Shown here piece by piece: positions 626 to 63,280 of a stretch of DNA of 64,000 nt (within the stretch, counting starts at the first letter, position 1; each line of letters begins with the position of its first letter). The DNA is from an archaeon (GTDB lineage: Archaea > Iainarchaeota > Iainarchaeia > Iainarchaeales > GCA-2688035), in contig JBAZQI010000002.1 of assembly GCA_041645325.1 (NCBI GenBank), forward strand, positions 8,850 through 72,849, in the 5' to 3' direction. The position numbers were made by a program, and so were the translations under genes. The notes under the pieces are model-generated. The model saw only the letters and a list, made by a program, of their open reading frames with translations, made no database searches and was not told where the DNA came from.

Positions 626-1816
626 ATGCGGGAATTTGACGTGATTGTAATAGGCGCAGGGCCGGCAGGCCTGCGAGCGGCCAAAATCCTTGCCGAAGGG
701 AACGCAAAGGTTTTGTGCATTGACAAGAAGCAGGAAATAGGCGTGCCAAAAAGGTGCGGCGAAGGCCTTGGCCTGGGCTGGATGAAAAGGCTCGGCCTCA
801 AGCCTGACAAGAAATGGTGCCTGCAGCCAATCACAGGTGCAGCCCTATACTCACCCTCGCTTAAAAGCATTGAAATTGACGACAAAAAAACTTCAGGCTA
901 TGTCATTGAACGCAGGGTGTTTGAAAAAGAGCTTGCAAAAGAAGCCGCAAAAAAAGGCGCCTTGATAAGGACAAAATGCAGGGCATTCAATTTTGAAAGA
1001 AAAGAAGGCAAAGTCATTGTTTCATGCATTGAACAAGGCGAACACACGCAATACTCCGCGCCGATAATAATTGCGGCAGACGGAACAGAAAGCCTTGCCC
1101 CAAGGCGATTGGGGCTTGACACAAAAATTTCACTGAATGACATTGACTCTGGCTACCAGTATGAAATGGCAAACATTTCCTTTGAAAAGCCAAATTTTAT
1201 CCACCTGTTCTTTGGAAAAGAAGTCGCAAACAGGGGTTATTGCTGGATTTTCCCAAAATCAAAAACCTGTGCAAACGTAGGCATAGGAATTGCAGGCATG
1301 TCGCAAAAAACAGCCAAAGAATACCTTGACCGCTTTGTGGAATCGCATCCAGGTCTCAAGAATGGCAGCATAATTGAAGTAAATGCCGGAACGATTCCGG
1401 TCGGAGGCTTTTTGGAGGAAATGACGGCAGACAACCTTCTTGTGGTGGGCGACGCCGCGCACCAAGTTAACCCGATTCACGGCGGCGGCATAGGCATTGC
1501 AATGGAAGCAGCCACAATTGCAAGCAAGGTTGCGCTTGAAGCCCTTAGGAAAAAAGACTTTTCCCGCGAATTTTTGTCAAAATACAACAAGGCATGGTAT
1601 GAAACAAGGGGCAACAAGCTCAAAAAAATCCTGAAGCAAAGGCGCATGTTTGAAGCCCTTGACGACGATGATTTCGAAACCCTTGCGGAAAGCATTACAG
1701 GGCAGGATATAATGCTCATTGCAGAAGGCGACCTTGCGGCATCGGCAAAAATGGTCATCAAAAAGCTGGTAAAGCACCCGAAGCTTGCGGGGATAATGCT
1801 GAAATACCTGAAATAG
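626..1816 (+). CDS. Geranylgeranyl reductase (digeranylgeranylglycerophospholipid reductase), FAD-dependent
   Basis: N-terminal FAD fold FDVIVIGAGPAGLRAAKILAEGNAKVLCIDKKQEIG, then PKRCGEGLG, and VGDAAHQVNPIHGGGIGIAMEAA. Typical archaeal GGR length of 396 aa. Confidence 0.85.
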   Translation: MREFDVIVIGAGPAGLRAAKILAEGNAKVLCIDKKQEIGVPKRCGEGLGLGWMKRLGLKPDKKWCLQPITGAALYSPSLKSIEIDDKKTSGYVIERRVFEKELAKEAAKKGALIRTKCRAFNFERKEGKVIVSCIEQGEHTQYSAPIIIAADGTESLAPRRLGLDTKISLNDIDSGYQYEMANISFEKPNFIHLFFGKEVANRGYCWIFPKSKTCANVGIGIAGMSQKTAKEYLDRFVESHPGLKNGSIIEVNAGTIPVGGFLEEMTADNLLVVGDAAHQVNPIHGGGIGIAMEAATIASKVALEALRKKDFSREFLSKYNKAWYETRGNKLKKILKQRRMFEALDDDDFETLAESITGQDIMLIAEGDLAASAKMVIKKLVKHPKLAGIMLKYLK

Positions 1817-1883
1817 CAGAAAATTTGTCTTCATTCTTCTGGTTGCAATAAAGCGCCAAAAGATGATTTTCACTTGCCCCATT

Positions 1884-2333
1884 TCAGCAATTTTTTTCCG
1901 CAAATTTTCTGATTATTTCCTTTGCTTCCCCAATTGTTTGGTAAGGGCGGCATTCAAAAGGGGTTTTTACGAATTTTGAGCCCTGCTTTCCTTTGATGTA
2001 AGCGGAAACAGCCTTTCCCAGATGCTTTTTGAAAAGGCAAAGCACCGGTTTTCCCAAATGAACAATGTCAGTTATTTCACCGCCAACCCCCAAGCTAGGG
2101 TTGCTTATCTCAAAAATGCCGATGTCGGATTCCTGCAGCCATTTGAAATCCCTGTCATGAATTTGCGCATCATTGAGCCTGCTTTCTTCCTCAAAAATGC
2201 CTTCTTTTGTCTGGTGCTCTGTTGCAAGCCTGAAGCCAAGCTCCTTTATTGCGCCCTGAATCTGAATCAGCTCTTCCCTGCTTGCATTCGCATAACCACC
2301 CCTCATGCTGCAGCCGAAAAAAATCTTCAACAT
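1884..2333 (-). CDS. Nucleoside 2-deoxyribosyltransferase-like protein
   Basis: FFGCSMRGG N-terminus and ESDIGIFEISNPSLGVGGEITDIVHLGKPVLCLF resemble the PF05014-type fold (D..GTAFE(I/L)G.A.A.GKPV). Start chosen at MLKIFFG; the upstream ORF extension is unlikely. Confidence 0.4.
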   Translation of the reverse strand: MLKIFFGCSMRGGYANASREELIQIQGAIKELGFRLATEHQTKEGIFEEESRLNDAQIHDRDFKWLQESDIGIFEISNPSLGVGGEITDIVHLGKPVLCLFKKHLGKAVSAYIKGKQGSKFVKTPFECRPYQTIGEAKEIIRKFAEKNC

Positions 2334-6910: not shown

Positions 6911-7516
6911 TTATCCTGTCCTTTCTTCCACTTCGCCTTCCGGCTCTGTTTCGCTGAAAACCTGGGCCTGGAACTTGAACACATGCGTTTCTTTTGACTG
7001 CCACATGCTTTCCATTAGCCCTGCCTTGGCACAGCATTGCTCCAAGAACTCCTCGGCATCCCAGCCCTGTTCTGTGGCAACCTGCGGCAGAAGCAGCCCG
7101 GAATGCCTGCCCCTCTGCACAATCAGGCCGTCTTCCCCGATTTTGACAAACTTCGGCAATTTTTTGCGCTCGCACAGCATCTCTTCAGGCACTGTCAAAA
7201 CGCTCACTTCAACAATAATGCCATTCAATTCGGTTGACTTCATTGGCGGAAACCTCGGGTCATTCAGCGCGGACTCAACAGCCATTTCGGAAACAGCGTT
7301 CCAAAGGGACTTCAGGGGATAAGGCATTCCAATGCAGCCCCTGAGCTCTTTTCCCGGAAAAGAATGCAGTGTCACAAAAACTCCACGCGGCTCAAAAAGC
7401 AGCTTGTCATCGCACATCTCCCTTAATCCGCGCCCTGAGGCAAGCGTGTAATTTACGCTTTTCCTCGCAAGCTTTACAAGCTCTTCTCCCTGCTTCAAAG
7501 AAAGCCTTCCAGGCAT
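6911..7516 (-). CDS. AMMECR1 domain protein
   Basis: GVFVTLHSF...LRGCIG and SGLLLPQVATEQGWDAEEFL are the AMMECR1 signatures. Start moved to MPGRLSL because the longer ORF start would overlap the divergent neighbour. Confidence 0.8.
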   Translation of the reverse strand: MPGRLSLKQGEELVKLARKSVNYTLASGRGLREMCDDKLLFEPRGVFVTLHSFPGKELRGCIGMPYPLKSLWNAVSEMAVESALNDPRFPPMKSTELNGIIVEVSVLTVPEEMLCERKKLPKFVKIGEDGLIVQRGRHSGLLLPQVATEQGWDAEEFLEQCCAKAGLMESMWQSKETHVFKFQAQVFSETEPEGEVEERTG

Positions 7517-10632: not shown

Positions 10633-10860
10633 CAAGCCTTTCTTTCTAAAGAAAGAAAGCCTTGGGAAAGAAAGAGGTTTTTTTGTTGTTGCAAAACCTT
10701 AGAGATGCTTTGGCATCTCTTACGGTTTCTGAACCTTATAGGTTCAGAAAAAACCTTGGGAAAGAAAGTTTCCCTGTTTTCGCCAGTCCCAAGCAAAGCA
10801 TGGCTTTGCGGGCCTCGTACCCTGCAGGGCACTCGGTTTTGGAAAAAGGCTTTTTCCGCC
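10633..10860. repeat. Intergenic repeat cluster: 2 copies of the AAAGCCTTGGGAAAGAAAG motif, a 76-bp double-hairpin module, and palindrome CCTCGTACCCTGCAGGGCACTCGG
   Basis: Motif copies at about 10655-10674 and 10748-10768. The 10693-10768 module (AGAGATGCTTTGGCATCTCT and TCTGAACCTTATAGGTTCAGA hairpins) is nearly identical to 23617-23690. The 10813-10836 palindrome recurs at 62995-63018. Lies between convergent 3' ends. Confidence 0.8.
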
Positions 10861-10863
10861 TGC

Positions 10864-12578: not shown

Positions 12579-12709
12579 TCAAAGAGAATTTGCCTGGAAA
12601 AGGAATTTAAACCAGGTTGAAACCCAAAAACAGGTTCTCATCATCATGCACGATGATGTAATAGCAAAAAAACCGCAATCTTCCCAACCAAAAATAGGGG
12701 TGAAGGGCA

Positions 12710-12847
12710 TTACCGCCTGCAGCGCTTAGCGAAAGCAGTTTCGCTGTCAGACCTGGTAATGCCCCCTTTGCTTAGAGTCTTGCCTAGCTCAGATGCCTTT
12801 TCAGAACTAAGTTCAGCCACTTCAAAATGGCCTTCGTTTGTTCCCAT
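12710..12847 (-). other. Possible 45-codon small ORF whose 3' end and stop are embedded in a 10-bp perfect inverted repeat (GGGCATTACC...GGTAATGCCC)
   Basis: Reverse strand reads MGTNEGHFEVAELSSEKASELGKTLSKGGITRSDSETAFAKRCRR. There is a TTTATAGGGGG TATA-like element about 50 nt upstream. The stem-loop (12705-12766) could equally be a terminator or RNA element for the upstream FttA gene. Confidence 0.15.
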
Positions 12848-13215
12848 ATATGATCCCTTCGCAAAGCACAACTATTATGCGCAACCCCCTATAAATACTT
12901 TTCGGTAAACAAGCTCAAATTGGGCTTTTTTTTAAGTATCTTGAAAAAATTGGCTTTTGTTTCAAAAAAGAAGCCTGTATAAGGCTTATTTTTTATGTAT
13001 ACTTGCCTTTTTTTGAAATTTTTTTTTTAAAAAATTTTTGGCCAAAAATGGCGTTATGTAGAAAAGGCTTTAAAGGAAAGAATCTGTTTCTTTAGTAGAG
13101 AATGCGTACTTGCTTGTGGCCTATAAAGTTTATACATTGCCACTTTTTTTTGATGAAACTTTTTCCAAAAGTTTCTTGTGCTTAGTTTTAGCGTGTTGCC
13201 TGCAGAATAAGCCCT

Positions 13216-15843: not shown

Positions 15844-15929
15844 TCACTACCCACCAAAAAATCTAAGACAAACAGAACAGTTCTCTGAAAAACTTCTATA
15901 GGCAAATCTTTATAAAGCCTTTTCTTTTG

Positions 15930-16005
15930 CTACCGCAAAAGAAAAGCCTTGGGAAAAGAAAGCTTTTCGCTTCGCGAAAAGAGGCCTTAGGCAACTTTTT
16001 TCCAG
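15930..16005. repeat. Intergenic hairpin/repeat element containing AAAAGCCTTGGGAAAAGAAAG
   Basis: Motif copy at about 15942-15962, flanked by hairpins TGCTACCGCAAAAG and CTTTTCGCTTCGCGAAAAG. Lies between the FKBP 3' end and the psmB 5' end. Confidence 0.7.
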
Positions 16006-16007
16006 CC

Positions 16008-20460: not shown

Positions 20461-22302
20461 ATGAAGGGATCCATTTTTCTAATCGTGCTTGCGGTTGCAG
20501 CAATAGCGTTAAGCGGCTGCGTGCAACCCGCTGTTTGCGGAAATGGAATATGCGAAACAGGGGAAACACTGCAAAGCTGCCCGCAAGACTGCGGGCAACC
20601 GGCAGAATCGCATTTTGAGTGCTCAAGCCAGCAATGCATGCAAGTGCCAGGTGGAGGAACGGACGAATGTGTAACAAATGCGGAATGCATAACGCCAACG
20701 CACTTTGAATGCCAAAGCCAAGCATGCGTGCAAGTGACCGGCGCGGGAACAGACGAATGCACAGCAAACGCGGAATGCACAGCACCAACGCACACCGAAT
20801 GCCAAAACCAGCAATGCATTACAGTCAGCGGCGCTGGAACAAACCAATGCCAGGCAAACCAGGATTGCACAATAGCCTCAGTTTGCGGAAATGGCGCGGT
20901 TGAGCAAAATGAAGAGTGCGATGGCAATTTAATGTGCCAAGAAGGATACAACTGTGAAAGCTGCAAGTGTGTTGAAATGCCCGTTGCTTGTGGCAATGGG
21001 ATAATCCAGGAAGGAGAAGATTGTGATGTTGAGAATATATGTAGCGAAGGTTTTGAGTGCAAAGATTGCAAGTGTATAAAGAAGGAAGCTGTTTGCGGAA
21101 ATGGCCTGTGCGAGTACTTGGAAGACAAAACTAATTGCCAAGCCGATTGCGACAAGTGTATGGAAATCTATGACGGATACAATAATCCTTCGGCGAACAG
21201 AGCAAACATAATTTTTGCTGCTTTTGAGGTTGATTCAATAAAAGACAAAGCCAAGCAAGCTTTGGATTTGGACGAAAAAACATTGGGCTTGTTTTCGATA
21301 GAGCCCTTTAAAAGCAATAAAAACAAATTCAACTTTTGGTATGTTGACAAAAAATATGCCTCATCAAATGAAGCCTTGTCAGATGAAGCCAAAAAAGAAA
21401 TTGAAAGAATCTGCAATTACAGCAACACTTATTCTTATTATATTGCAAAAGACATAGACAACTTTATGCCCCTGGGAACAGCTGGACAGGGCCCTGGCAA
21501 TAAAGCCACAATTCGCTGGTACAAAGACGATCCAGATCCGCAAACTAATACCATAATAAGTACGGTCATTCATGAGTCAGGCCATTTAATAGGGCGATTA
21601 AAAGATGAATATGTGCTGGCGACAGGAAATGGCTCCATCTTTGATCAAGGCGAATACAAGCTTGACGAAAGTCTAGTCGAAAGAAACATATTCTTTGATT
21701 GGGAATCTTACAAAAATAATGGCAAAACAACAGAGGAAGAATGCCTGCAAAAAACCCATTGGAAAAGCCTTATCGGAAGTGGTTGCGGAAATCCTGCTGT
21801 TGTGGACTGCATTGAATGGCATTTAAAATGGGCTTTTGTGACAGATGAATCAGCAGCCCAAACATCATACGCCAAAATAGTTGGAGCTGATGTGAATTTT
21901 ACAATGCCTGAAAAGATTGACTCGCTTTCAGCAATTTACTACGGAGAAAACGCCTTGAAGATTACCAGCGCTTGCGAATCAAAAGATGGAAAAAACTGGT
22001 TTTGCTCGATATCAAATACTACAGCAGCCATTCTTAGCCTGATTGTGAATGGAGAACGAACCGAATTGAACTCCAACCTAAGACTGTCAGGCGGTGCTAT
22101 AAAATGCAAGGAAGGTATGCCTGACTGTATTATTGAAATTTCTTGCTTTGAGGGGGCACTCTACAAGCAGTACGATGTTTTTAGGCCAACATTTAACTCA
22201 ATAATGAATGAGCTTATAAATCGGCAGAGAGGGCAATATTCGTTTGGCAAAGTAAATGAACAGTTAATACAAAGCGAGTTAGACAAATACTCAAGCAGTT
22301 AA
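20461..22302 (+). CDS. Secreted lipoprotein: Cys-rich repeat modules fused to putative zinc metallopeptidase domain (HExxH...DEY, M64-like), paralogue 1
   Basis: Lipobox IALSGCVQP and the module VCGNGICETGETLQSCPQDCG. Three 26-aa HFEC..Q.C..V.G.GTDEC..N.EC repeats. Two CGNG....EECD/GEDCD repeats of the Myxococcus Cys-rich-repeat type. Catalytic-looking VIHESGHLIGRLKDEY. Confidence 0.6.
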   Translation: MKGSIFLIVLAVAAIALSGCVQPAVCGNGICETGETLQSCPQDCGQPAESHFECSSQQCMQVPGGGTDECVTNAECITPTHFECQSQACVQVTGAGTDECTANAECTAPTHTECQNQQCITVSGAGTNQCQANQDCTIASVCGNGAVEQNEECDGNLMCQEGYNCESCKCVEMPVACGNGIIQEGEDCDVENICSEGFECKDCKCIKKEAVCGNGLCEYLEDKTNCQADCDKCMEIYDGYNNPSANRANIIFAAFEVDSIKDKAKQALDLDEKTLGLFSIEPFKSNKNKFNFWYVDKKYASSNEALSDEAKKEIERICNYSNTYSYYIAKDIDNFMPLGTAGQGPGNKATIRWYKDDPDPQTNTIISTVIHESGHLIGRLKDEYVLATGNGSIFDQGEYKLDESLVERNIFFDWESYKNNGKTTEEECLQKTHWKSLIGSGCGNPAVVDCIEWHLKWAFVTDESAAQTSYAKIVGADVNFTMPEKIDSLSAIYYGENALKITSACESKDGKNWFCSISNTTAAILSLIVNGERTELNSNLRLSGGAIKCKEGMPDCIIEISCFEGALYKQYDVFRPTFNSIMNELINRQRGQYSFGKVNEQLIQSELDKYSSS

Positions 22303-23433: not shown

Positions 23434-23700
23434 AAGCCTTTCTTTCTAAAAGCCTTTTAATAAAAGGCTTGCGAAAAACGATGGCGAAAAATGCTTCGCG
23501 AGAAAGAAAGCCTCCTGGCAAAACCATTGGTTTTGAAAGGCCCAGCAAAGCTGCAGCTTTGCCGGGTGGGAAAGAAAGCTTTTTGCTTCGCAAAAAGAAG
23601 CCTTTTTTTCTGCTGAAAAACCTTAGAGATGCTTTAGCATCTCTTACGGTTTCTGAACCTTATAGGTTCAGAAAAAGCCTTGGGAAAAAATGCGCTAATT
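23434..23700. repeat. Intergenic repeat cluster: hairpins plus second copy of the ~70-bp double-hairpin module and the AAAAGCCTTGGGAAAA motif
   Basis: 23617-23690 (AAAAACCTTAGAGATGCTTTAGCATCTCTTACGGTTTCTGAACCTTATAGGTTCAGAAAAAGCCTTGGGAAAA) is about 95% identical to 10693-10768. Additional hairpins include AGCCTTTTAATAAAAGGCT and CTTTTTGCTTCGCAAAAAG. Confidence 0.8.
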
Positions 23701-23837
23701 TTTTGCTAAGCATTTTTTTCCATTTCAGCGGATTCTTATTTTTCCGTTTGCAATTGCCTGCAGGAAGTCCATATCAAGGCTGCCCGGGTTACGAGGCCTT
23801 GCCAGGAAAATTTTTGCAGCAGTTTTGCCGGCAGCTT

Positions 23838-24101
23838 CTAGCGCCTTCCGATTCTATTTCTTCCTCTACTAATTTGCCCCAGTAAATCGCTATCGATTTT
23901 TGAAATGTCATGATGCCTTTCCATTATTATTTTTGCAGCTTCTTGTGCGCCAATCTTATTTGCGCGCATCAAATCCTCGACCAGCTTGGAAGTGTAGCCG
24001 ATTTTATCTATTTTGGTTTCACCCACCAGGGGTTTTCCCGTTTGAGTCACTCGCCGTCTTTTTACCTTTCTTACCCTTCTCATAATTGCGTGTTTCACCA
24101 T
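23838..24101 (-). CDS. Small basic protein, possible HhH-type nucleic-acid-binding protein
   Basis: MRRVRKVKRRR... with LMRANKIGAQEAAKII, which is helix-hairpin-helix-like. Family not recognised. Confidence 0.3.
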   Translation of the reverse strand: MVKHAIMRRVRKVKRRRVTQTGKPLVGETKIDKIGYTSKLVEDLMRANKIGAQEAAKIIMERHHDISKIDSDLLGQISRGRNRIGRR

Positions 24102-31447: not shown

Positions 31448-31467
31448 GCCGTTTTTGCTCAAGGCAC

Positions 31468-31728
31468 TTTTCCCAAGGCTTTTTCTGAAGGAAAAAGGCT
31501 TAGCAACGCATCAGCGTTGCTGTTTTCCCAAGGCTTTTTCCGAAGGAAAAAGGCTTAGCAACGCATCAGCGTTGCTGTTTTCCCAAGGCTTTTTTCAACA
31601 GAAAAAAGGCTTTGCGCGAAGCGCATTTTTCCCAAGGCTTTTTCTGAAGGAAAAAGGCTTAGCAACGCATCAGCGTTGCTGTTTTCCCAAGGCTTTTTGC
31701 CAACAGGCAAAAAGGCTTCTGCACAAAA
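31468..31728. repeat. Tandem array of five ~46-57-bp units, each TTTTCCCAAGG + A/U hairpin + GC hairpin (AGCAACGCATCAGCGTTGCT) + GTTTT
   Basis: Units start at about 31468, 31523, 31578, 31626 and 31683. Units 1, 2 and 4 are near-identical; 3 and 5 have variant hairpins (TGCGCGAAGCGCA; CTTTTTGCCAACAGGCAAAAAG). Contains the reverse complement of the dispersed AAAAGCCTTGGGAAAA motif. Confidence 0.85.
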
Positions 31729-31808
31729 TTTATTAATAATGAAAGTATTCTATTAGTGTGCATATTCTATTAGTGTGCAAACCACAGCGTCAGGGAGCGT
31801 TTTTTTGA

Positions 31809-41259: not shown

Positions 41260-41619
41260 TTATTGCAGCTCTTTCTTCTTAATAATCTTTACCTTGCTTG
41301 GCGTCACAAGAATGTGCTCGTGGCTGATTCTTGCTATATCCCCGTTGATTCCCTCAATGCCGCCTTTTATCTTGGTCACAATTTCCTTGAGCTTTATCGC
41401 GTTTCTCTTGCTCAGGTCCCCTATGTTCACAAGGACAATATTGCCTGCTTTTGCCTCGTTTACAACATTCTGCGCATCGGCTTCGGTTGTAAGCGTAATG
41501 GGCTTCACGAAGGCATCGGCATCCTCGTAAATGGTTTCATCCTCGGCATCAAGGTTGTTCAAAAAGCCCTCAATGTCTATTCCTTCTTCTCTCTTCAAAA
41601 CCTTTTCTAAAAAAGCCAT
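41260..41619 (-). CDS. sepF: Cell division protein SepF-like (DUF552)
   Basis: MAFLEKVLKREEGIDIEGFLN...AKAGNIVLVNIGDL...GDIARISHEHILVTP matches archaeal SepF (IVL.N...L......R..DFL.G..YAL.G...RI....FL.TP). Confidence 0.6.
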   Translation of the reverse strand: MAFLEKVLKREEGIDIEGFLNNLDAEDETIYEDADAFVKPITLTTEADAQNVVNEAKAGNIVLVNIGDLSKRNAIKLKEIVTKIKGGIEGINGDIARISHEHILVTPSKVKIIKKKELQ

Positions 41620-41906
41620 TATTTTTTGCACCCCCAAATTCAATTATAGTATTTCTCCCACAATTGTTTTTTAAAACACTTCGCTTGCATCCCCTACATA
41701 ACAAGCCGCCCCAGCCGGCTGATCTGGGTGCCATAAGCTCGCTTTTGCTCGCTATGGCCCAGGTAAGGAAACCGAATTCTTTGCCAAACCCCAGGTTTGC
41801 TTTCTCAATAAAGCATGCTTTTTAATTGCCCGGCCATAATAGTTATGCTCCCAACTTTTTTCAGGAATTTTTACCCGACACAAACACAGCCTAGGGTGGG
41901 TTTTTT

Positions 41907-62885: not shown

Positions 62886-63040
62886 AAGCCTTTTTGCCTC
62901 ACGGCAAAAAGCCTTGGGAAAGAAAGAAGCCTTTTTTGCTTGGGCAAAAAAGCCTTGGGAAAACCAAAACATAGAAAAGCAAAAGCTTTTCGTGCCTCGT
63001 ACCCTGCAGGGTACTCGGTCGCTGTTGCGATTTTAAGCCT
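62886..63040. repeat. Intergenic repeat cluster: two copies of the AAAAGCCTTGGGAAA motif, hairpins, and palindrome CCTCGTACCCTGCAGGGTACTCGG
   Basis: Motif copies at about 62906-62926 and 62947-62964. Hairpin TTTTGCCTCACGGCAAAA. The 62995-63018 palindrome matches 10813-10836. Lies between convergent 3' ends. Confidence 0.8.
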
Positions 63041-63280
63041 TTTTTGCCCTGCTACATGCAGAAGCAAAGTTTTAGCGCCCTCTTGATTGCTCCCGAAATT
63101 AATTCCTTACTATTTTTTACTATTTCAGATAGGATTGGTACTATTATCTGGTTTACTTTTTCTGATTCTATCTCCGATATTATACCTCTGATATTTTCAC
63201 TTATATTATCCCCTCCTATAGGGGAGAACAAGAGGGCTAAAACTTTTACCTTAATTTTATTAAGTATTTCTTCGCTTTCC

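Follow-up and report, generated by a model that had tools for sequence, protein, structure and literature searches.

The window, as the whole analysed stretch of 64,000 nucleotides is called here, comes from a Diapherotrites/Iainarchaeota (DPANN) archaeon and contains five intergenic arrays of one repeat family. The basal unit (U) of the family is a hairpin, AAGCC-Tn-apex-An-GCCTT, followed by GGGAAA; it can equally be described as a perfect palindrome between two AAGCCTT heptamers, which gives a conserved C•C mismatch at the stem foot. The units stand alone or in tandem arrays of one orientation, with small GC hairpins interleaved, mainly just past stop codons, but also in tRNA introns and once in frame within an ORF. 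Two of the arrays additionally hold the double hairpin (DH), a 54-nt module placed in a basal unit that acts as its carrier, and two hold a separate two-hairpin module of ~50 nt (M2) or its second palindrome (M2b). The features are as follows:

10634–10863, plus strand: array 1, between convergent genes, with a basal unit (10634–10669), carrier and DH, a GCAAAGC hairpin (10788–10812) and the M2b palindrome (10813–10836)
10675–10700, plus strand: carrier hairpin of DH copy 1, AGGTTTTTTTG-TTGTTG-CAAAACCTT, its A-tract shortened where DH joins
10697–10757, plus strand: DH copy 1, CCTT-hairpin 1-TACGG-hairpin 2-AAAAAACCTT, 103 bits with covariance model R1
10813–10836, plus strand: M2b palindrome, second copy, CCTCG-TACCCTGCAGGGCA-CTCGG, joined to a different first hairpin
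15915–16007, plus strand: array 3, antisense to both neighbouring genes, in the stretch that separates the FKBP stop codon from the proteasome TATA box
23434–23725, plus strand: array 2, directly after the stop codon of a 217-aa gene, with several A/T-run hairpins, a GCAAAGC hairpin (23541–23566), carrier and DH
23598–23624, plus strand: carrier hairpin of DH copy 2, AAGCC-T7-CTGCTG-A5-CCTT
23621–23681, plus strand: DH copy 2, hairpins at 23625–23644 and 23650–23674, 107 bits with covariance model R1
31448–31718, minus strand: array 4, five tandem units of 49–55 nt each, with basal units at 31469–31501, 31524–31556, 31579–31612, 31628–31660 and 31683–31718
62886–63043, plus strand: array 5, basal units at 62886–62921 and 62927–62962, and an M2 module within hairpin B
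62970–63018, plus strand: M2 module, CATAG...CTCGG, 49 nt, including the palindrome at 62995–63018

The five arrays comprise 11 units in 64 kb, and the sequence CCTTGGGAAA is observed 11 times (0.44 expected). The heptamer AAGCCTT is found 25 times in the 1,079 bp of arrays and 46 times in the remaining ~63 kb. Within an array the units all point the same way, as in the five minus-strand units at 31469–31718, and the only mixed-orientation cluster is found at a metagenome locus (L009). The stems are perfect palindromes save for the conserved C•C pair (60 of 105 single-mismatch hairpins), and a run of T5–T7 is present on both strands of every basal unit. With respect to a target-duplication reading of the heptamers, the variants of the left and right copies show no co-variation in the exceptions inspected. 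A snap-back origin of the unit, as a hairpin "footprint", predicts a fully complementary foot (AAGGCTT) and not the observed AAGCC/GCCTT with its C•C mismatch. Basal units are also present in many Iainarchaeum MAG contigs. Genome-scan matches in Bacteroidia, Thermoanaerobaculia and similar groups are unrelated tandem repeats that contain the 11-mer by chance, and a Pfam search of the ORFs on a "Falkowbacteria" contig gave no match.

The two DH copies, first noticed as a near-identical pair, match a 71-nt pattern exactly at 10693–10763 and 23617–23687 (plus strand), and this pattern gives no match in 100 dinucleotide-preserving shuffles. The copies differ solely at its two R positions (G/A in the loop of hairpin 1 and A/G before CCTT), and the similarity around them reaches 99 nt at 88% (10668–10766 versus 23592–23690). 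Both hairpins are perfect at both loci, as had been claimed: the stem of hairpin 1 is AGAGATGC/GCATCTCT (10701–10720 and 23625–23644) and that of hairpin 2 is TTTCTGAACC/GGTTCAGAAA (10726–10750 and 23650–23674). The description of their surroundings as two unrelated intergenic regions does not hold, as each is an array of one and the same repeat family, and they have further modules in common: AAGCCTTTCTTTCTAAA directly follows both stop codons (10634 and 23434), and the GCAAAGC hairpin (10788–10812 and 23541–23566) occurs in both. Repeats of this kind break assemblies, and several short contigs end within arrays, so that an assembly artefact (a collapsed repeat or a contig join, as the earlier note allowed) or a chance match has to be considered. 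Its probability is negligible given the shuffles and the agreement of independent assemblies, 4–5 of which carry the sequence unchanged between unique flanks. DH copy 2 recurs without a difference in three further assemblies (JGI 3300028028, ENA ERZ27247322 and Logan SRR8449812; L002 and L003 are among the loci), and DH copy 1 in ENA ERZ27249422 (L107).

The pair is not alone. The exact 21-mer of hairpin 2 led to 12 JGI metagenome loci with 14 further copies. Among the copies, 13 are full-length and have hairpin 1 arranged as in the window, one (L015) is interrupted by an M2-type insertion and one (L012) is ended by the contig. These copies are 96–100% identical over 73 nt and come from one species or several; the loci are orthologous neither to the window nor to each other. 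With the covariance model R1, run on 366 kb, all matches above 100 bits are near-identical copies and the split and truncated copies score 52–59 bits, while nothing is found at 40–50 or 60–100 bits; thus, no old, diverged full DH copies are seen. The near-invariance of DH could alternatively reflect purifying selection on a function.

The position of DH is constant: it lies in the A-tract of a basal unit, just 5' of AAGCCTT-GGGAAA, and was never found outside a carrier unit among the copies. The apex of the carrier varies from copy to copy, the junction ...AAACCTT-AGAG is invariant, and the loop of hairpin 1 is either TTTA or the flipped TAAA, the rest of DH being invariant. One metagenome locus (L016) shows the empty and filled states side by side, with an empty 58-nt unit followed by two 112-nt units that are the same but for the 54-nt DH; the insert lies within an A-run, where a duplication of 0–4 A is indistinguishable. 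Terminal inverted repeats of DH were not found (its ends, CCTTAGAG.../...CAGAAA, are not mutual inverted copies), nor was an unambiguous target-site duplication around the copies. The proposal of a recent, MITE-like duplication or mobility is therefore upheld in its substance, multi-copy and inserted or mobile behaviour, by the 13 non-orthologous full copies, the empty and filled units and the array-free relatives described below, but is not supported as a strict MITE label. Because DH never occurs outside its carrier, copying may act on the composite unit and not on DH alone, or the spread may be explained by recombination among the arrays and not by transposition. Viral contigs gave no match for hairpin 1, and the unit-pair pattern matched only coding PWEKY-type repeats there; GenBank phages and PLSDB plasmids also gave no match, so that nothing points to a viral or plasmid vector. 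No mobilising gene or transposase is evident in the gene tables of ~83 kb of this genome.

The modules are nested within one another. The 24-nt palindrome reported at 10813–10836 and 62995–63018 is indeed present at both places, with a chance expectation of zero, and belongs to M2. In array 5 M2 splits hairpin B, leaving AAAA at 62966–69 and TCGCTGTTGCGATTTT at 63019–34, and an uninterrupted hairpin B is seen in L012. At L015 a 51-nt M2-type module splits DH itself, between TTACG and GTTTC. No target duplication is observed at the M2 insertions.

The arrays are variable between close relatives. Orthologous sites were compared in four syntenic relatives with 69–79% aa identity in the neighbouring protein. 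None of the four has an array after the 217-aa gene or at the FKBP/proteasome site, and a third site, upstream of the surface-protein gene, was comparable in one of them (L095) and is likewise free of an array. In place of array 2 the relatives have 58–130 nt of unrelated sequence. At the FKBP/proteasome site of three of them (L093, L094 and L096) the stop codon abuts the TATA box (TTTATAAAGC directly followed by TAC); the window has ~90 nt there. Three of the four lack CCTTGGGAAA in ~20 kb. Plain T-runs are found at the gene ends of the relatives (TAG-GCTTTTTTTTGC in L094 and CTTTTTTTCCC after Hel308 in L095). At the finest scale, array 4 has five units in the window and two in a 99.9%-identical assembly, and short contigs of other assemblies break in or near arrays.

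Two further kinds of site are occupied. One DH copy lies in the ~205-nt intron of a tRNA-Val(CAC), at position 37/38, where a canonical bulge-helix-bulge formed from the anticodon loop (UUCA/UGAA, with bulges CAA and AAC) removes the whole array. Arrays are also present in introns of tRNA-Ile(UAU) and tRNA-Ser(GGA). In total, four tRNA introns at 37/38 are made of these arrays and start exactly with (A)AGCC, and a fifth array starts right where a tRNA ends (3' end); each of the five has the sense orientation relative to its tRNA. Beside the arrays of the window no hidden tRNA halves were found (ARAGORN on the window and a T-arm regex). The second kind of site is a protein gene: at L006 a DH copy lies in frame in a conserved protein (an 801-aa ORF), homologues of which are without that segment.

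The earlier note also considered a multi-copy small structured RNA gene, and DH as a stand-alone gene of this kind is highly improbable. The fold is stable (z = -4.6 to -5.8 versus shuffles, for the unit with flanks) and the sequence is strongly conserved among the DH copies, but both strands fold about equally well, the copies have no conserved promoter-like sequence in common (the carrier hairpin upstream of them differs), and they are sense and antisense to their neighbours, in a tRNA intron and in an ORF. The covariance-model search that had been proposed gives no Rfam family at the gathering threshold in the 64 kb; the best match, the Streptococcus sRNA SSRC34_2, lies on the opposite strand and reaches 38.2 bits where the gathering score is 48, and its appearance at permissive E-values reflects a resemblance of A/U hairpins only. 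On inspection no boxes were seen for C/D-box, H/ACA or K-turn readings. A CRISPR array can also be set aside, as what would be "spacers" are short palindromes that often recur unchanged in the same array, and no CRISPR family matches at threshold. An excess of G•U pairs, as a sign of selection at the RNA level, is seen on neither strand (12 versus 9). The loops favour a T start on the GCCTTGGGAAA strand (123 T-first versus 70 A-last, of 268), and C(UNCG)G loops are found 10:0 on that strand; this bias, the UNCG loops and the all-sense tRNA arrays hint at a constraint on one strand, either as RNA or as ssDNA. More plausible than an RNA gene, though still unlikely, is that selection maintains the arrays as cis-acting elements at the transcription or RNA level (bidirectional oligo-T terminators, insulators or protective 3'-end hairpins) which arose from native T-run terminators at gene ends, with DH as a structural add-on. 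Their placement directly past stop codons (10634, 23434 and 62886), the T5–T7 runs on both strands of every unit, the plain T-runs of the relatives, which resemble the 5' half of the unit, the small share of arrays between divergent genes (only ~5 of ~50, by crude ORF calls) and the strand-biased and UNCG-type loops all fit such a role. Against it, close syntenic relatives manage without arrays at the same gene ends, near-identical strains differ in unit number, the orientation to the upstream gene is mixed (~14 sense versus 8 antisense), one array lies within an ORF, and sense T6–T7 runs are present within tRNA introns, which need transcription through them. DH itself has no T-run of at least 4 on its sense strand, and the identical 54-nt modules at many loci are left unexplained.

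The tRNA introns raise the question of an RNA-level mobile element tied to tRNA splicing, the units of which would derive from excised (circular) bulge-helix-bulge introns, or move in that form, and re-enter DNA via an RNA intermediate. The four array-filled 37/38 introns, all sense, the further array at a tRNA 3' end and the single-strand asymmetry of the loops are consistent with this, and the lack of a clear target duplication recalls the RNA intermediate proposed for the Allomyces double-hairpin elements (PMC2800124). We nevertheless give this route little credence: inspection of the U, DH and M2 boundaries reveals no bulge-helix-bulge, so that single modules are not read as such introns, and the motif in tRNA-Val is the ordinary one of the anticodon arm. 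Furthermore, most arrays are away from tRNAs, no reverse transcriptase was seen, and the flip of the hairpin-1 loop and the perfect palindromy point to events at the DNA level.

The explanation that we consider probable is that the DH family is a non-autonomous hairpin repeat, mobile or recombining at the DNA level, of the kind of REP/BIME, RPE and the organellar DHEs. Pneumococcal BOX elements have a modular boxA-boxB-boxC build. Like these, the arrays are mosaics of short modules in variable number and combination that form stable multi-hairpin intergenic structures, but the sequences and hosts are unrelated and BOX modules are not nested in one another's stems. REP/BIME, known from enterobacteria and pseudomonads, are moved by RAYT, a Y1 transposase of the IS200/IS605 type (reviews PMC3184786 and PMC12306157). 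They share with the present family short imperfect palindromes in many copies, which lie outside genes and usually right after a stop codon, their grouping into composite arrays whose linkers are defined, a stem foot with a conserved irregularity (which suggests recognition of a single-stranded hairpin) and no classical TIR or TSD. There are also differences: in the present family conservation falls on the stem foot and linker (AAGCC...GCCTT-GGGAAA) and variation on the apex, the reverse of REP; the units of an array are co-oriented, whereas neighbouring REPs alternate; the conserved 5' motif is AAGCC and not a GTAG-type tetranucleotide; no RAYT was found in the ~83 kb of genome read; and the host is a DPANN archaeon with modules nested within one another. 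An IS200/IS605-derived PATE would be expected to have two similar subterminal hairpins (LE and RE, for one TnpA), whereas the stems of hairpins 1 and 2 (AGAGATGC versus TTTCTGAACC) are unrelated to each other.

Rickettsia palindromic elements (RPE) are single long palindromes of 100–150 bp, of bacterial origin, for which in-frame insertion is frequent. They are mentioned in PMC1779305 and PMC10969869. The likeness lies in palindromic repeats being tolerated in frame in protein genes and in RNA genes, as in the L006 ORF and the tRNA-Val intron, although in-frame insertion is seen here only once. MITEs (including Correia/NEMIS and archaeal MITEs; PMC10969869, PMC3184786) are likewise small, non-coding, multi-copy, intergenic and non-autonomous and show presence/absence differences, but no terminal inverted repeats and no clear target-site duplications of fixed length, which define MITEs, were seen here, and the 54-nt DH is smaller than a typical MITE and without evident similarity to known IS ends. 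The organellar repetitive hairpin elements comprise DHEs in Allomyces mtDNA, GC clusters in yeast mtDNA and RHEs in sponge mtDNA (PMC2800124). They consist of one or two hairpins of tens of nt, situated between genes, in introns and in parts of genes that tolerate them, are scattered among close relatives, with conserved stems and varying loops that are read as recent spread, and have no known autonomous partner; the DHEs have no flanking duplication (PMC2800124). Like them, DH has two adjacent stem-loops, occupies dispersed intergenic, intron and gene sites and is patchy among relatives. The organellar elements belong to eukaryote mitochondrial genomes of other composition; the likeness is one of kind only, with no sequence relationship, and neither a punctuation motif nor a fixed insertion position in a carrier unit is described for them (PMC2800124).

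As a DNA-level hairpin repeat, the family would be selfish or neutral DNA. Its spread between loci may proceed by site- or structure-specific insertion by a trans-acting enzyme and/or by array-to-array copying (gene conversion or template switching), presumably followed by local expansion through tandem duplication, and it would persist where insertions are tolerated. If the host makes any use of it, for instance for additional oligo-T termination or for insulation, that use would be secondary. A bolder possibility, which we regard as speculative and unlikely, is that the family is the footprint of an undescribed insertion system in DPANN, specific for both structure and sequence, for instance an enzyme that recognises ssDNA hairpins and acts at the AAGCCTT/A-tract of the family's own elements, or an RNA route via excision and circularisation of tRNA introns. 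If true, repeats would propagate by a new mechanism in either case, and tRNA introns would serve as a source or safe harbour.

In general, these nested hairpin repeats are a previously undescribed, lineage-specific family in tiny DPANN archaea, located at gene ends, in tRNA introns and in one protein gene, and the family looks like selfish repeat DNA rather than a small-RNA gene. DPANN genomes are very small and gene-dense and are usually thought poor in repetitive DNA. Here, hairpin modules of ~30–55 nt multiply within themselves and inflate intergenic spacers that otherwise have near-zero length, add peptide segments to proteins and fragment metagenome assemblies. The tRNA introns that they fill grow beyond 200 nt, and standard tRNA finders overlook those genes as a result, which is a practical warning for the annotation of tRNAs and small ORFs in these lineages. 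We know of no settled account of how short palindromic repeats move, even for the bacterial and organellar analogues; the defined empty and filled sites together with the nested insertions offer a clean system for this question in archaea.

The 54-nt double-hairpin module (DH) occurs twice in the window, where a 71-nt pattern has exact matches at 10693-10763 and 23617-23687 and none in 100 shuffled sequences. Both hairpins of each copy are perfect, as the earlier note had stated, and according to the repeat finder the likeness of the copies reaches 99 nt (88% identity). Assemblies of other samples (JGI, ENA and Logan) carry copy 2 with its flanks unchanged, and a fourth has an identical copy 1. 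On these grounds (exact matches, none in shuffles, perfect hairpins, identity across other assemblies) the module is real and not the assembly artefact considered earlier. The two surrounding spacers, previously taken as unrelated, both belong to a set of five hairpin arrays, all composed of one basal unit, AAGCC-Tn-apex-An-GCCTT-GGGAAA:

10634-10863, hairpin array
15915-16007, hairpin array
23434 to ~23725, hairpin array
31448-31718, hairpin array in minus orientation
62886-63043, hairpin array

The sequence CCTTGGGAAA occurs 11 times in the window against 0.44 expected, and AAGCCTT 25 times in the 1,079 bp of arrays versus 46 in the other ~63 kb. The GGGAAA tail and the stem foot of the basal unit are invariant, while the apex (2-4 bp and the loop) varies, with changes paired in both arms. 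A C•C mismatch near the foot is conserved and accounts for 60 of 105 single-mismatch hairpins; the unit can equally validly be described as two AAGCCTT heptamers enclosing a perfect palindrome. Small GC hairpins (hairpin B) and other hairpins alternate with the basal units. This architecture is found again in many Iainarchaeum and 'uncultured archaeon' MAG contigs. Bacterial matches of the contig scan were unrelated tandem repeats, with the exception of two contigs (L054 and L083, JAFCBY01) of a MAG labelled Candidatus Falkowbacteria, a CPR bacterium. These hold textbook units of the family (AAGCC-T-run hairpin-GCCTTGGGAAA and hairpin B), and Pfam gave no matches on their ORFs; either they are mis-binned Iainarchaeota contigs or the family is present across domains.

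The source organism is a DPANN archaeon of the Iainarchaeota, as follows from the genes of the window (FttA/aCPSF1, a Hel308-type helicase, PolD, Cdc6, NAC, a proteasome subunit, FKBP) and from the homologues of the 217-aa protein encoded upstream of copy 2, which are labelled Candidatus Diapherotrites or Ca. Iainarchaeum. Three neighbouring large ORFs at 20461, 24805 and 26878 (613, 620 and 561 aa) have a common 5' end (66-78% over the first ~120 nt) and internal CGNGxCE-like repeats; they appear to be paralogues, secreted or surface proteins of one family. Relative to L002, a JGI assembly of the same strain, there is a 16-nt indel at 20497-20512, near the start of the 613-aa ORF; as this is not a multiple of three, the called start differs between the two. 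A small gene convergent on copy 2 (23725-24101, minus strand), the counterpart of a DUF7342 gene in the syntenic relative L093, appears to be broken into two reading frames (ORFs of 87 and 40 aa), with a third-frame tail that stops near 23735, and is possibly frameshifted or a pseudogene. Two long spacers are free of hairpin arrays: 12579-13215, with a long imperfect hairpin at ~12690-12790 that has no Rfam match, and 41611-41906, directly 5' of cdc6, which may be the replication origin.

The arrays are lineage-specific. Four syntenic relatives, in which the neighbouring protein is 69-79% identical, keep the order of FttA, proteasome, FKBP and, farther, NAC, the 217-aa gene and Hel308, and have no array at any comparable orthologous site. 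Between FKBP and proteasome three of them read TTTATAAAGC followed by TAC, the stop codon touching the TATA box, and the fourth is just as compact, versus ~90 nt of array in the window. The ~290 nt that follow the 217-aa gene in the window correspond to 58-130 nt of unrelated sequence in all four, and CCTTGGGAAA is absent from ~20 kb in three of the four. Upstream of the surface-protein gene, a site comparable only in L095, which keeps the gene order there, the promoter block CTGCACAA..TTTATTAATA..GTATTCTATTA is conserved between L095 and the window, which has a 5-unit array directly 5' of it, starting exactly at AAGCC. Just 5' of this 1502-aa surface-protein gene lies a 17-nt direct duplication (31745-31790, ATTCTATTAGTGTGCAT ATTCTATTAGTGTGCA); since L095 keeps both GTATTCTATTA and the TTTATTAATA before it, the duplication may be a promoter or regulator site. 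Unit number differs even between near-identical assemblies: the array at 31448-31718, downstream of Hel308, has five units, versus two in the 99.9% identical ENA contig L001 (5300-5405), reflecting either true copy-number variation or assembly collapse. Short contigs of other samples terminate within or close to arrays.

An exact 21-mer of hairpin 2 matched 12 JGI metagenome loci with 14 further copies of DH, which bears out its multi-copy nature. These loci share no homology with the window or with one another, and are therefore distinct genomic places. Thirteen JGI copies are full-length with hairpin 1 arranged alike; in L015 a copy is interrupted by an M2-type insertion, and in L012 one is truncated by the contig end. 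Over 73 nt the copies are nearly identical, varying essentially in the hairpin-1 loop (TTTG, TTTA or TAAA, the last a flip of TTTA). With a covariance model every full copy scores >100 bits and the split and truncated ones 52-59 bits; the 366 kb scanned contain no other match >37 bits and no old, diverged full copy. The place of DH in its carrier unit is constant. It is never solitary, being always preceded by a basal-type hairpin (with an A-tract two bases shorter than the T-tract and an apex that varies between copies) and CCTT, and always ending in AAAAAGCCTT-GGGAAA. One array, L016, offers an empty/filled comparison: after a 58-nt unit come two of 112 nt, and all that sets them apart from the first is an insert of 54 nt in the A-tract. 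The exact edge of the insert within the A-run is ambiguous, and a duplication of 0-4 nt is compatible with this array.

The second shared 24-nt palindrome noted before is indeed present at 10813-10836 and 62995-63018 (chance expectation zero), and is the second hairpin of another module, M2 (CATAG-AAAAGC-loop-GCTTTT-CGTG-CCTCG-[variable palindrome]-CTCGG, 49-51 nt), with a conserved 2x2 internal loop and compensatory changes in the inner stem. Insertions of M2 are sharp-edged and nested. At 62970-63018 it splits a hairpin B between AAAA and TCGCTGTTGCGATTTT, the counterpart in L012 being intact, and in L015 an M2-type module interrupts DH between TTACG and GTTTC. In L008 and L013 an extra palindrome is nested within the M2 palindrome, and in L007 M2 hairpins are joined with a hairpin-2 variant. 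This makes the system modular, with recursive nesting.

Neutral sites are occupied as well. Four tRNA genes, all missed by ARAGORN, carry arrays as long introns (~190 to >300 nt) at position 37/38:

L039 and L062, two MAGs: array intron in tRNA-Ile(UAU)
L018, a third MAG: array intron in tRNA-Ser(GGA)
L014 (JGI Ga0265296_1001040), ~1630-1900, minus strand of the locus: array intron with a DH copy in tRNA-Val(CAC)

Besides a promoter-like box and a T8 terminator, the tRNA-Val(CAC) gene shows a canonical bulge-helix-bulge motif (bulges CAA and AAC around the 4-bp helix UUCA/UGAA). In L006 (JGI Ga0265296_1006344, 7322-7452) a basal unit with DH lies in frame and stop-free inside an 801-aa ORF for a conserved protein, annotated by NCBI as one protein, adding ~40 residues (PFLLGQNLRDAKASLTVSEPYRFRKSLGK...) to a K/E-rich linker; the homologues P0122-P0124 (45-57% identical) are without this segment.

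The arrays could act as terminators, insulators or 3'-stabilisers, and as a secondary use this is possible: each strand of the units has T5-T7 runs, and the units look like the native T-runs that follow stop codons in the relatives. Yet the relatives manage without arrays, sense T-runs lie inside tRNA introns, DH has no sense T-run, and orientation is mixed (by crude ORF calls, at gene 3' ends ~14 sense versus 8 antisense, with ~5 of 50 arrays between divergent genes). A stand-alone small RNA gene, also suggested earlier, is not supported, as Rfam at the gathering threshold gives no match across the 64-kb window. ARAGORN finds nothing in the window either. The Streptococcus sRNA family SSRC34_2 reached 38.2 bits at 23570-23679 (minus strand) against a gathering score of 48; the likeness is due to A/U-run hairpins and a UAAA loop and was judged a chance structural resemblance. 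RNA-level mobility tied to tRNA splicing would be the most novel of the readings, but the modules have no bulge-helix-bulge boundaries of their own, and we consider it improbable.

We infer instead that DH is a non-autonomous repeat module spreading at the DNA level. Action on DNA is favoured by the TTTA/TAAA flip in an otherwise invariant module, by the perfectly palindromic stems and by the lack of G•U wobble bias on either strand. A putative enzyme would recognise the foot and tail of the carrier unit, leading to site- or structure-specific insertion, or the module would be copied between arrays via gene conversion or template switching; either way, local tandem duplication would come next. 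Loops are T-first on the GCCTTGGGAAA strand (123 versus 70), C(UNCG)G loops fall 10:0 on that strand, and every tRNA-associated array runs in the sense direction of its tRNA; given these asymmetries, an RNA- or ssDNA-level component may also take part. IMG/VR, GenBank phages and PLSDB plasmids yielded no vector.

As a family, the arrays work like REP/BIME elements (reviewed in PMC3184786, PMC12306157), Rickettsia palindromic elements (mentioned in the review PMC10969869) and pneumococcal BOX mosaics, and are nearest in form to organellar double-hairpin and repetitive hairpin-forming elements (PMC2800124). The earlier proposal of a MITE-like element holds as to probable mobility; a MITE proper is ruled out by the absence of TIRs. 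A BIME is ruled out by non-alternating orientation and the absence of GTAG, and an IS200/IS605 PATE by the two hairpins of DH being unrelated to each other; the family also fails the defining tests of CRISPR and of any Rfam family. Searches of full-text literature turned up no account of such elements in Diapherotrites/Iainarchaeota or other DPANN archaea. DH is thus a real module of wider scope than the earlier note proposed, and its mechanism appears to act at the DNA level.
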